Shown in pieces: positions 12,801 to 50,995 of a stretch of DNA of 64,000 nt. Under the pieces are notes generated by a model. That model made no database searches, had not been told where the DNA came from, and saw only the letters and a list, made by a program, of their open reading frames with translations. The first letter of the stretch is position 1; every line of letters begins with the position of its first letter. The stretch is taken from assembly GCA_964016885.1 (NCBI GenBank), contig OZ024742.1, forward strand, positions 315,642,001 through 315,706,000. Direction: 5' to 3'. The position numbers and the translations under genes were made by a program. The stretch is from Eledone cirrhosa (Eukaryota).

Positions 12801-13697
12801 AACAGCAATGCTGCATGGCAGTGAGACCTGGGCATTGTGTGCAGAGGATATACGCAGACTAGAGAGGAACGAAGCTTGCATGCTCCGCTGGATGTGCAAT
12901 AGTAATATACGTGAACGGCAAAGCATAAACGAACTAAGGAAAAAATTAGAAATAAGAGGGATCAGATGTTGTTTACTCGAGAGAAGGCTACGTTGGTACG
13001 GTCACGTGATGCGCATGAAAGTCGATAGCTGTATAACAAAGTGCAGGGCAATAAAGATAGACGGTAGCCACGGAGTAGGCAGACCCAGAAAAACATGGGA
13101 CGAGCTGATAAATTCCGACCTCACACGCTTACACCTCTCCAAGACAATGTCACTGGACCGAGACCTTTGGCGGTACTCAGTAATAGAGAAGACCCGCCTT
13201 ACCTAAATACAAAGTAAAAACCTACTACAGTCAGTAGGCACCTCTATCAAAACACACCCCCGTCCCTCCACACCGCCCCTTTCAATGTAAAGTTATGTTG
13301 GTCCCACAACATCCAGGCCGAAACAAATGAGATCGTGTAGGTGTCACGACAAAAAACACACAGTCCACGCTGTAAATGTGGCCGTGTAGGCAACACGGTA
13401 AAAACCTCCCAGCCCCACACTGTAAATGTGGTTGGTGTTAGGAAGGGCATCCAGCTGTAGAAAACCCGCCAGACAGTCCACGCTGTAATGTGGCCGTGTA
13501 GGCAACACGGTAAAAACCTCCCAGCCCCACACTGTAAATGTGGTTGGTGTTAGGAAGGGCATCCAACTGTAGAAAACCCGCCAGACAGTCCTATGCGAGC
13601 AAGACAACCACTCTTGCCTCAAGTGGGAAAACCCCCGTCCAAACCCATGCAAGCGTGGAACACGGACGCTAAACCTGATGATGATGATGATGATGAT
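9875..13697 (+). mobile_element. Apparently full-length RTE-clade non-LTR retrotransposon
   Basis: 5' leader, single APE+RT ORF, 3' UTR of about 490 bp, (GAT)n tail, then (TA)n. Confidence 0.95.
10186..13206 (+). CDS. RTE ORF: APE endonuclease, reverse transcriptase with inserted PHD-like Zn finger, RTE C-terminus
   Basis: NVGTL, IQETRW, GDLNGHVG, DYIL, SQH (APE); [36 protein letters not shown] (RT); RRLRWYGHV, GRPRKTW; uninterrupted 1006 aa. The true start may lie further upstream. Confidence 0.95.
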   Translation: MNVGTLKGRSNEVVEMLERKEVDVCCIQETRWRGGSARFIVGKERCYKLFWVGNDNGLGGVGIMVAEKWADKIIDVNRVNDRIIKIRLVLNKTTVTVISAYAPQSGQPRAIKDRFYETLMLATSQITDSDYIVIAGDLNGHVGQHCDGYDGIHGGYGFGTRNEEGSRILEFCDANNLTICNTNFKKRDNHLITYRSGEHTSQVDYILTRRRDRVSVVNTKSHPHEEFTSQHRLIISDLIVRTRRTRQRKRTILRRKIWKLKDPIARNKFQSKLLDAFDSKEEQLESYNIEEQWEFLRANLLTAADEVCGWSRPVGRRRVTWWWNSKVEESIKAKKQAWKVWRDGGSREDYQVARREARRQVYFARREAEERKFKHVLQREDQKREVFRIARQCVKENRDIVGEKCVLNDDGILAITDADKKVAWKCHYERLLNEENKWEKDSLPQIDPIEGPAVLVEGSIISKAIKDMKTGKAAGPSEIVAEMLKASGSVGHTMVTRIVNQVVQNGVVPKEWRSSIIVNCYKGKGDALDRSNYRGIKLIDQVMKVTEKVIAQLIRERIDLDEMQFGFVSGKSTTDALFIVRQLQEKYLAKSKPLYLAFVDLEKAFDRVPRSIIWWSLRKLGVDEWLVRAIQAMYKETVSKVRINNEYSEEFSVKVGVHQGSVLSPLLFIIALQAITEEFKTGCPWELLYADDLTLIAESMTELEKKFQTWKHGLESKGLKINLAKTKVLVCRKENKAAVPSGKWPCSVCRKGVGRNSILCPKCKVWVHKRCSGITGKLTKNIDFTCGRCSGAISSSKCPQNTSSFNCAEGSIEIVDSFRYLGDKISSGGGCSESTVARVRTGWKKFRELIPLLAARGFSLKMKGRLYDTCIRTAMLHGSETWALCAEDIRRLERNEACMLRWMCNSNIRERQSINELRKKLEIRGIRCCLLERRLRWYGHVMRMKVDSCITKCRAIKIDGSHGVGRPRKTWDELINSDLTRLHLSKTMSLDRDLWRYSVIEKTRLT

Positions 13698-46324: not shown

Positions 46325-46358
<34 letters not shown>

Positions 46359-46451
46359 GAAGTAATTCCGTCGGAAAAGTCCAGGAAAAAAGAGTGCTCT
46401 ATGTAGGTAACAGAGCTTAATAGTTATGTAATAAACAACATAAGGCAATTA

Positions 46452-46511
46452 TTCCATTTACCAGTGGTTTCTTAAAAGCAAAAGATTTTGCTTTCAATCC
46501 TCAGAATGAAA
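46452..46511 (-). ncRNA. Type I hammerhead ribozyme (identical inverted copy)
   Basis: Reverse complement of 46531-46590. Confidence 0.8.
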
Positions 46512-46530
46512 AAAAAACAGACCAGGATTT

Positions 46531-46590
46531 TTTCATTCTGAGGATTGAAAGCAAAATCTTTTGCTTTTAAGAAACCACTGGTAAATGGAA
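46531..46590 (+). ncRNA. Type I hammerhead ribozyme
   Basis: TTTCATT-CTGAGGA-TTGAAAGCAAAA tc TTTTGCTTTTAA-GAAA-CCA c TGG-TA/AATGGAA; all core nucleotides present; GUA triplet at 46581-46583. Confidence 0.8.
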
Positions 46591-47049
46591 TAATTGTCTT
46601 ATGTTGTTTATTACATAACTATATATATATATATCTATATATATGTGTGTGTGTGTGTATAGATACATATATATGTGTGTGTGTGTATAGATACATATAT
46701 ATGTGTGTGTGTGTATAGATACATATATATGTGTGTGTGTGTATAGATACATATATGTGTGTGTGTGTGTATAGATACATATATGTGTGTGTGTGTGTGT
46801 ATAGATACATATATATGTGTGTGTGTGTGTGTGTATAGATACATATATGTGTGTATATATACATACATATACCAATGCATATATACGTGTATGTGTGTAT
46901 GTGTCATAGAATCCTTATGTTTCAAGGTCACTAAAAGAGGTAGAAAACTGTATGAAAACAATAACATTTAAAATTACATGATATTGCCAAGGAGCCTTAC
47001 ACCAAGACGGTTATACATGTAATTTAAAATGTTATTGTTTACGCCATGC

Positions 47050-47240: not shown

Positions 47241-47984
47241 CGTCATGCGTTTAATTTCCTCCCTAACGGTAGTTTTTCTTGCAAAATATTGGGTCGTCAA
47301 GTATGAAATTTGTAGAAATTTGTTTTTTTTCTAGAAATTTCTACAAATTTCATACTTGACGACCTAATAATTTCATCCCAAATGATTATATTAATATGTT
47401 ATTCTCTAATTCAGGGTTTCCCAAACTTTTTCAAATGCGGAACCTTTTTTTTTGGTTCAGAAACTTTTAGGGGAAACCCCAAAATCTAATACTGTTATAT
47501 GGTCGTAATATAAATATACTCCTCTAACTTTTTTCACGGACCCTCCTTTGTGGAACCCACTTTGGGAACTACTACTCAACCATTACAGAACTTACGCTTG
47601 GGTCCCAAATAATAAGGGGTGGGGTGGAATCGGTTATTGTATCGTGTACTTCGTAAATATGGGATTTTTTGTAATGTTCTTTTTTTTTTGTCATATATAA
47701 TGTTTTTTTTAATGTATCGATATAAATCACTTACAATAAAATTTCGCCGAAGATAGATTAGCAAAATTTAATAAGTACGGGGGGATGGGAGGTGGAATAA
47801 AAGCGGTGGGGTTCGAAAAAATCTGAGAAATTAATAAGCGGGGGTAGATTCAAATATCACAGAGAAAGAGAGAGAGGGGAGAAATGAGGTGGAACAGAAA
47901 TGAAACATGGATTACAAGTTAAAATATAGTCTAGACAGATGTGAAACAAAACGAAGATGTAGTTTATGGAACACCCAAATGATT

Positions 47985-49700: not shown

Positions 49701-50995
49701 AAAATAACAGATTAAAGTTTAAGCAAAGAATCGCTGCTTTCACCCTTAACGGGATCTTCTGAAACTAACAAAGTCAATCTGTAAACGCAGAACTGGATAT
49801 TTCAAAAAACGTTGCAACCGGAGGAAGACAGGAAGACGATACTTTGGTTCGTGGTAACGTTCCCTGGCGAAGAACGGGGAAAAAACGAATAATACGTCAT
49901 TAATAGGAGCGGTGAAAAACAATTACGCGCAAAGACAAAACCACGTGTATGGTATAAAAGAGGTCGTAGACTAATGTTTTCTTTGGTGGTGCATAGAGAC
50001 GTTCTCTGGCAATGAACGAAAAAACGAAGATAATAAGTCATATGTGGAGCGTGGAGAACAATAGCACGCAAAGACAAAACCACGTAAATGGTATAGCATA
50101 ATTCGTAGACTAAAATTCTAACTAGGAGACCAAATGAATCTCCGCTACAGAGTTAAGAACAAAGTAAATAAATACAATACAGAAATAATAGAAACAAATA
50201 AATACATACACGCAAACAAATACGTACATACACAAGCGTACGCAAAACCTTACCATGAGTATACAAAACCATGCACATATAAATATGTGTGTGTGTATGC
50301 TTGTGTACAAATAAATAAATAATTATATAAACGTATATAAGTAAATAAATACGTATATAACAAGCGCACACGCATACCTACATATAAATACACGAATGTT
50401 CGGAGAGGTAAGTCAACTAAAACAAGAAGTACACATATACACACACCCACCATACGTACGAACTTGCACACTCACGCGGACGCAAAACTCCCGTATACAC
50501 ATAGCCAAACCCTAAATACCAGAATATGTAAAAATTATACGCTATAACAGTCAAGTATACGTACGAGAAGGTATACATACCTTCACAAAACATACGGGTA
50601 ATATATACTTACCTATGCAAATAAGTAAAGGAATAAACAAAACATATACTTAGCTCCCACATCAAGACGTAAAATATCCACGTATAGATCGTGCTATCCG
50701 TTAGGGTATAACGTGGGGCTGTAATACAGGAAAGTTTTGTGCAATTTATGTTTACAAGCCGAAATTGCCTCAGATTTTTTGTTTAAGATGTGGTCTGTAG
50801 CGTAGAGTATTTCCAGGGCCTCAGCGGCGCAGAGGTCACATAGTCTTTTATTTCCGTTATACGATCTAGCCCTAGCTAGGATCTCCCAGTGTAACTTATA
50901 TTGGGTGTGGTTGTCTTTTAGACTCCAGATATAAGCTGAAAAAGGGTGAAAGCAGCGATTCTTTGCTTAAACTTTAATCTGTTATTTTAATAAAT
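49695..50995. mobile_element. Non-coding element of about 1.3 kb with inverted termini of about 50 bp, next to (TA)n
   Basis: ATTAAAATAACAGATTAAAGTTTAAGCAAAGAATCGCTGCTTTCACCCTT and its exact reverse complement at about 50942-50991; left end also present at about 28300-28500. Confidence 0.65.

Follow-up and report, generated by a model that had tools for sequence, protein, structure and literature searches.

What placed two hammerhead ribozyme motifs on opposite strands of a short palindrome, inside a (TA)n tract of the Eledone cirrhosa genome? The first-pass annotation of the window (the whole 64,000-nt stretch analysed here) had considered a non-coding retrozyme-like element, a self-silencing RNA switch or a source of double-stranded RNA. 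We are confident of a different reading, an extremely 5'-truncated insertion of a Hydra-type Penelope-like element (PLE) into (TA)n, in which two hammerhead-bearing end repeats (pLTRs) stand head to head and one of them carries a tail, likely from a single event and likely functionless. The palindrome itself is likely a by-product of PLE copying rather than an RNA switch.

Geometry of the insertion

The arms of the inverted repeat (46420-46514 and 46528-46622) are 95 nt each, lie 13 nt apart and are 99% complementary, with their sole mismatch at 46445/46597. The RNA fold of 46400-46640 reached -152.5 kcal/mol (z = -31), and none of 200 shuffles was equally good. The first-pass annotation had correctly seen a palindrome of about 200 bp in (TA)n and misjudged its extent: the insertion starts at 46352 and not at 46420, because 68 element-derived bases (46352-46419), overlooked at that stage, extend the left arm only. 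The whole insertion spans 46352-46622, about 270 bases, and is larger than the palindrome. Read from 46514 to 46352, arm and tail correspond to positions q98-260 of a natural copy (L053:3741-4000), used below as the 260-nt reference, at 99% identity. The features are as follows.

46328-46351, no strand: left (TA)n target remnant (TRF, TA x14 at 46328-46355; element homology from 46352)
46352-46419, minus: 68-nt PLE tail, the template between the pLTR end (site 1) and a second end point (site 2)
46420-46514, minus: inverted, 5'-truncated pLTR arm (inverted-repeat call and match to the L053 reference)
46452-46511, minus: type I hammerhead motif, core 46504-46459, predicted cut 3' of 46459 (pattern match; mirrors the plus copy)
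46509-46517, no strand: head-to-head junction, a run of 9 A with a microhomology overlap of at most 3 nt between the arms
46515-46622, plus: sense, 5'-truncated pLTR arm without tail, ending at the fixed site 1 (q82-192 of the L053 reference)
46531-46590, plus: type I hammerhead motif (pattern match, fold, covariation, L053 alignment)
46623-46871, no strand: right (TA)n/(TA-TG) microsatellite flank, within which a target site duplication (TSD) is unreadable

The 5' ends of the two arms are 16 template positions apart. No TSD can be read at this insertion because the target is (TA)n. The arms and tail were deeply covered in four public contig sets of one study, in which no piece spanned the junction, so that they speak neither for nor against the assembled centre of the palindrome. 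No host gene was recognised near the insertion, the long ORFs of the window resembling retroelement proteins.

The parent element and its clade

The arm is a high-copy repeat, with at least 716 candidates in the genome, of which 40 scored 99-100% identical over 111 nt. In 30 fetched copies the sense arm ended at one fixed point followed by (TA)n, two features that the query itself had selected, and was 5'-truncated at many points. Inverted partners usually carried some 68 bases past the end point of the sense arm. The genome-wide check of copies and flanks suggested by the first-pass annotation returned many copies and, in the fetched ones, (TA)n flanks. The 76-nt tail alone gave no candidates as a genome query within the limit of a first look; a longer query gave 890.

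In L031-L033 the hammerhead continues upstream, via a microsatellite-rich 3' UTR, into a frame of RT and GIY-YIG type, and L033 has the layout of the window with a 2.5-kb sense arm. Conversely, when copies were chosen by the RT 5' region (20 fetched out of 40 found), a complete terminal arm lay downstream within the 10-kb locus in 13/20, or 14/20 once L053 was extended; at least an internal hammerhead copy was present in 17/20, and neither lay downstream in 3/20. The pLTR and tail stood directly upstream of the ORF in four copies, flanking it as direct repeats on both sides in L048 and L059 and on the 5' side in L053 and L057. In full-length units the tail leads over into the 5' UTR, with the ORF beginning about 113 nt further on, and in 10 arm records it runs into the next unit. 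The extension is therefore the start of the next unit, that is, a PLE "tail". Judged from these sequences, the arm is the end repeat of a coding PLE. This bears out the suggestion that the motif was of the Penelope pLTR type, and it goes against a non-coding retrozyme-like element, as does the lack of tandem short-unit arrays among the 103 sites described below. RT-like frames, at first suspected to be unrelated, also lie antisense upstream of L019 and L021; those in L019 belong to another PLE family.

One copy, L059, has a single unbroken ORF of 714 codons encoding an RT followed by a GIY-YIG-type endonuclease, in a unit of about 4.6 kb between pLTR ends. Its motifs are RWK (position 37), DKT (114), YRDD (344), CxCx5C (559), YVGMT (598), CxxC (662) and CxH (693), and, as read from the L059 sequence alone, no cysteine pair lies inside the GIY-YIG-type core. 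The nearest ESM-atlas clusters scored 0.95-0.99: for the best three neighbours (~700 aa) the sole annotation was an HTH family, found in a minority of members, and others carried RVT_1 (92% of one cluster) or GIY-YIG (22-50%). Searches of Pfam (two ORF fragments and the whole ORF), NCBIfam and PDB sequences named nothing relevant for this ORF, so the evidence for the clade consists of motifs, neighbours in the atlas and visual comparison with a published protein.

The Hydra clade is described as inserting into (TA)n, with canonical hammerheads, RWK and DKT motifs, a CxCx5C linker, CxxC and CxH (PMC8557442); a further criterion of the clade is an endonuclease that lacks an internal CCHH motif. 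The present family resembles this clade, with its C-terminal endonuclease, in all five of those motifs, the (TA)n target, the single ORF and a hammerhead near the 3' end. The L059 motifs and the (TA)n insertion thus match the description of the clade, a putative assignment made by motifs. The nearest family listed in the supplement of PMC8557442, Hydra-1_Obim, shares the ACCA-n-UGGU stem III and the (TA)n preference, and the N-terminal 400 residues of its protein look collinear with our ORF by eye. According to that supplement the two differ in the sequences of stems I and II, in the triplet (GUA here, U at that position there) and in the end repeats, Hydra-1_Obim being listed as "no pLTR" whereas clear pLTRs and a 68-nt tail are present here. 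Units also differ in length (~4.6 kb in L059, 2.5 kb in Hydra-1_Obim), because L059 has a long microsatellite-rich 3' UTR with a second hammerhead copy; it exceeds the usual size of Hydra clade units (<3 kb), which is typical and not defining. By its motifs, the element is a putative new Hydra-type PLE family in an insertion layout that is already known.

The hammerhead motif

The hammerhead pattern matches at 46538-46583 (plus) and 46459-46504 (minus). In its loose form it was weak evidence within the window, with 17 matches, many of them overlapping, a number also reached by 1 of 100 shuffles. A tighter pattern including stem III gave 9,034 matches in the genome, some motifs matching twice, against 1 for the reversed control. 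In the plus copy, stem I pairs 46531-46537 with 46584-46590 (7 bp, one G.U), stem II occupies 46545-46570 (12 possible bp, one G.U), and the core consists of CUGAGGA (46538-46544) and GAAA (46571-46574). The GUA triplet ends at 46583; the cut predicted to follow it lies 39 nt before the end of the pLTR. A palindrome, ACCA-C-UGGU (46574-46582), makes up stem III.

The first-pass annotation had described a full type I hammerhead in each arm. Stem I, stem II, core and triplet stand; the 4-bp stem III does not, since its loop would be a single nucleotide, too short for closure in a monomer, where a 3-bp form is possible. Two palindromic stem III strands would form an 8-bp intermolecular duplex (-8.2 kcal/mol), which agrees with the earlier remark that such hammerheads can cleave as dimers; a dimer is probably needed here. 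The monomer fold of the arm recovered stems I and II, with a stability no better than that of shuffles (z -1.1 to -1.5). The scan for known hammerheads that had been proposed gave a mixed outcome: next to the pattern matches on both strands, searches of 5 kb at E<=1 and of the arm alone at E<=10 yielded no Rfam hammerhead family, only hairpin-driven hits to miRNA models below the gathering score.

The motif in the window has the type I features CUGANGA, GAAA, an NUH triplet and three stems, and the core was intact in 152/160 terminal-arm records. Covariation was analysed in 18 aligned motifs (17 distinct) from the first 30 loci of the tighter pattern search, 4 of 21 distinct motifs being omitted, including the L163 pair, in which the junction cuts stem I. 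Across the 17 distinct subfamily variants, 94% of cells were paired, compared with 33-56% in slid controls, and two-sided changes occurred in 5 pairs (3 in stem II and 2 in stem I). The stem II changes are common to 3-4 related sequences and may therefore represent few events, and since the search pattern prescribed the core and stem III, this set is no test of their conservation. The stem covariation supports the hammerhead fold.

The long hairpin and the ribozyme would exclude each other in read-through RNA, as had been proposed: the modelled hairpin reaches -146.4 kcal/mol, and the fold with stems I and II enforced -65.3 kcal/mol, a gap of about 80 kcal/mol. This exclusion follows from any inverted insertion. 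A self-silencing switch under selection is hence disfavoured, the more so as the copies have many different fold-back centres, which is expected if each copy is made anew. The hammerhead would be a passenger of the pLTR, sequestered in the long hairpin whenever the fold-back is read through; within the parent element, tandem transcripts would be its substrate, cleaved either by a dimer or with the assistance of protein. For related PLE motifs, published cleavage is either weak and dimeric or dependent on protein (PMC4209133, PMC11167929).

The 3' UTR of the parent element contains a second hammerhead copy, about 89% identical (oriented position 8483 in L031; also in L032, L033 and L042-L059), 1.1-2.7 kb upstream of the terminal one in most copies. 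The cleavage position is G (GUG, normally uncleaved) in 43/45 internal records versus A in 156/160 terminal ones, and the core is otherwise intact in 40/45 internal records; overlapping loci may account for a few duplicates in these counts. The internal copy may be an old partial tandem that became fixed and inactivated, or an uncleavable partner for intramolecular dimer folding. A role as a selected "helper" was considered and not adopted, because about 8 differences in 100 nt sparing the core are within chance.

One tail per pair and coupled junctions

We merged 141 loci into 103 sites, 65 of which scored as head-to-head pairs; in the remaining 38 the fetched flanks contained no scored pair, and one of these sites has an irregular, untyped pair (L088). 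The 3' ends of the arms were bimodal, with 88 records ending at site 1, 96 at the end of the tail and 4 elsewhere, the two sites being 68 nt apart. Overlapping loci led to a few duplicates among these records, and the site-1 group includes 3 internal copies. Simple repeats followed 158 of the arm records (88 + 96 + 4), in line with the targeting of (TA)n noted in the first-pass annotation.

Exactly one arm carried the tail in 59 of the 62 typed head-to-head sites (both arms in 2, neither in 1); 3 further head-to-head sites have an irregular end. Among the typed sites that came from end-neutral queries the rule held in 32/33 (30/31 without the window and one segmental duplicate); it was followed by 6/7 head-to-head pairs of diverged subfamilies, one with only a partial tail match. 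The diverged exceptions were L163/164, with a tail on neither arm, and L144/145, which are tail to tail.

The 5' ends of the two arms were coupled as well. Among 34 short pairs, picked for having both 5' ends inside the 260-nt reference, one with tails on both arms was dropped; in 22 of the other 33 the 5' ends lay within 5 nt of each other (permutation mean 9.5; 0/100,000). Outside a hotspot of 5' ends this was still the case in 5/13 (mean 1.6, p = 0.011). Short solo copies without fold-back started in the same hotspot, at q64-71, in 7/10 cases. The other 11 of the 33 short pairs were asymmetric, that of the window by 16 nt; among the long pairs L047 and L054, for example, were asymmetric by hundreds of nucleotides. 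Tail-only arms tended to stop at site 1 (q188-202 in L030, L031, L066, L070 and L084). The centres of the fold-backs were heterogeneous, some with filler DNA, six copies having one palindromic centre. Most symmetric junctions lay on the palindrome TTTTAAAA; the junction of the window was not found in the other short pairs examined. Inverted pairs with arms of 1-4 kb exist, and arm lengths were continuous up to full-length, ORF-bearing arms. Heterogeneous centres, fillers and this continuum indicate that the fold-back is rebuilt at each landing and not propagated as a unit.

Mechanism and alternatives

The shared template end and the coupled junctions are most simply read as both target strands priming on one RNA. 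The element's endonuclease would nick both strands of (TA)n, and the 3' ends so exposed would prime reverse transcription at internal positions of the element RNA, namely site 1 for one strand and site 2 for the other. Both cDNAs would then head to the RNA 5' end, stop after about 110-165 nt and be closed by end joining. The one-tail rule with fixed double end points fits such priming. A stricter version, which we put forward tentatively and with somewhat more doubt than belief, is that fixed double priming is how PLEs integrate: a dimeric enzyme would use one strand per initiation site, all head-to-head insertions would consequently be tailed on a single arm, the trailing cDNA would often stall at site 1, both would run off at the common RNA 5' end, and the short stumps would be copies of the 5' pLTR of a transcript starting some 35 nt upstream of the hammerhead. 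Against the strict mechanism count the 3/62 sites that break the rule, the two diverged exceptions, the irregular ends and the asymmetric pairs, that of the window among them.

The PLE protein of Poseidon nicks and extends both DNA strands, with two internal initiation sites bounding the tail, and its insertion needs no hammerhead cleavage, its hammerhead cleaving only with protein (PMC11167929). The integration route of PLEs is named as unresolved in PMC8557442. No paper on a double-priming model for PLEs was found by title or abstract start in the open-licence literature, subscription journals lying outside this scope. The value of the locus is as a record of PLE integration: the one-tail rule, which has few exceptions, and the coupling of junctions make concrete predictions that apply to the in vitro system of PMC11167929, and these statistics add modestly, and in testable form, to the question of mechanism. 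If true, the double-priming rule would extend to the (TA)n-targeting Hydra clade and would have a quantitative in vivo footprint.

The strongest rival, which we consider rather unlikely, keeps the same element and derives the inverted arm from self-priming or fold-back at a short palindrome, endonuclease resolution at site 1 then stripping one tail. Similar ideas appear in Arkhipova et al. 2013 and in a comment on "EN-mediated resolution" by Craig et al. 2021 (PMC8557442), and self-priming at junction palindromes was proposed in PMC3846280. Such a process accounts for the symmetry and the one-sided tail alike, and it agrees with the perfect palindromic junctions on the palindrome named above and with overlaps of about 20 nt (q59/q59) in L006, L023, L099, L100, L122 and L131. 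However, a single fold-back cannot give a tail arm much shorter than the tail-less one, an arrangement that is common (L030, L066, L070, L084, L031 and L033); several tail-only arms end right at site 1; and the short solo copies, which have no fold-back, begin at the hotspot too.

It is improbable, more so than self-priming, that the insertion was once a longer inverted one and was reduced to a short palindrome by loss of its centre, through later deletion in the genome or collapse in the assembly. Long palindromes are unstable, which favours such a loss, and long inverted pairs (arms of 1-4 kb) are known in this family. The location of most symmetric junctions on a palindrome suits central deletion as it suits self-priming. 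Yet solo short copies and short pairs start at the same positions, the junction fillers resemble end joining, the arms are 99% identical and the one-tail layout recurs at every length. The lack of a public contig across the window junction would also fit a deletion or collapse, but short-read contigs are not expected to span the junction of a high-copy repeat.

The idea of a fold-back retrozyme or ribozyme switch that is non-coding and dedicated, with the palindrome as its unit of transcription and mobilisation, is largely refuted and very improbable: short fold-backs are frequent (34 among 103 sites), their hairpin beats the ribozyme fold by ~80 kcal/mol and six share one palindromic centre, but that centre is a palindrome of the template at which solo copies start, the other centres are heterogeneous and in some cases contain filler DNA, arm lengths form a continuum up to ORF-bearing arms, head-to-tail arrays of the short unit were seen at none of the 103 sites, and the window junction is absent from the other short pairs examined.

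Comparison with known systems

The layout has published parallels. PLEs typically have, at their 5' end, a 5'-truncated copy in inverted orientation, and often a tail of 30-40 bp at one end only (PMC8557442). In Pen2a_Av, a tail on one inverted pLTR and junction palindromes were read as self-priming (PMC3846280). This element and the unit in Fig. 2 of PMC8557442 resemble ours in the head-to-head 5'-truncated copy, the one-sided tail and the junction palindromes; they differ in the tail (30-40, against 68 nt here), the TSD, unreadable here within (TA)n, and the arms, which here barely extend beyond the hammerhead.

Opposite-strand pairs of PLE hammerheads 100-700 bp apart were reported in Schistosoma and ascribed to truncated PLEs, and a dimer arrangement via stem III was described for metazoan PLE hammerheads (PMC4209133). 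These dual hammerheads (Cervera and de la Pena 2014) share with ours the opposite strands and a palindromic stem III suited to dimers. Compared with the minimal motif of Schistosoma as given there, the present one has a stem I of 7 bp, a stem II of 11-12 bp, a longer stem III and no G10.1-C11.1 pair. Metazoan non-LTR retrozymes are described as head-to-tail tandem hammerhead units (bioRxiv 10.64898/2026.07.22.740005). They are alike in their PLE-type type I hammerhead and in that the short copy is non-coding, but here the pairs are head to head and longer copies are continuous with a coding element. With no tandem arrays of the short unit, the present copies fall outside the definition of a retrozyme.

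Both features, inverted pLTRs tailed on one side and hammerhead pairs on opposite strands, are thus already in the literature (PMC8557442, PMC3846280, PMC4209133). The locus in the window is ordinary, being one of at least several hundred near-identical copies in a genome with thousands of related hammerheads. Such insertions scatter perfect hairpins of 100-300 bp genome-wide, a possible source of double-stranded RNA if read through.

Other elements in the window and at related loci

Inside a long (TA)n array (window 60746-61775) lies another hammerhead pair arranged head to head, which belongs to a different family. Its arms (60765-61095 and 61337-61667) are 331 nt long and 98% identical, its motifs lie at 60805-60849 (minus) and 61583-61633 (plus), and an extension of about 90 nt is present on the right arm only, the same one-sided-tail layout. 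A hammerhead-like motif of another repeat family, at 2443-2485 (minus), adjoins (TA)n and has an inverted pair in L036. At 50748-50930 (minus), a segment 37% identical to the C-terminal endonuclease part of L059 (E 4e-8) is a remnant of another Hydra-like element.

Other Hydra-like families also occur beside or nested with the present one (L032, oriented 2031-4382; L034, L038 and L039), including an unbroken 784-codon frame; the hammerhead of one family has a stem III of UAUAUA type. In L034, the sole site with a tail on neither arm, symmetric 3.4-kb arms fuse an end of this UAUAUA-type family to the 3' UTR of the present one. Inside the element copy of L037 (G000:C2:311620500-311630499) lies a 424-bp tandem array of 100% identity that has an inversion and contains the region of the internal hammerhead; it may reflect local amplification or an error of assembly.

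In the window itself, blocks of a 203-bp tandem unit (6522-9837) recur four times with interruptions at 98-99% identity. Downstream of them lies a frame of 1029 codons (10117-13203), which we take to be an APE-type non-LTR retroelement from the way it reads. A near-perfect hairpin of about 80 nt at 47287-47369 gave miRNA-model hits below the gathering score. Finally, 54696-63990 is a 9.3-kb degenerate (TA)n array with higher-order units and mobile-element insertions.
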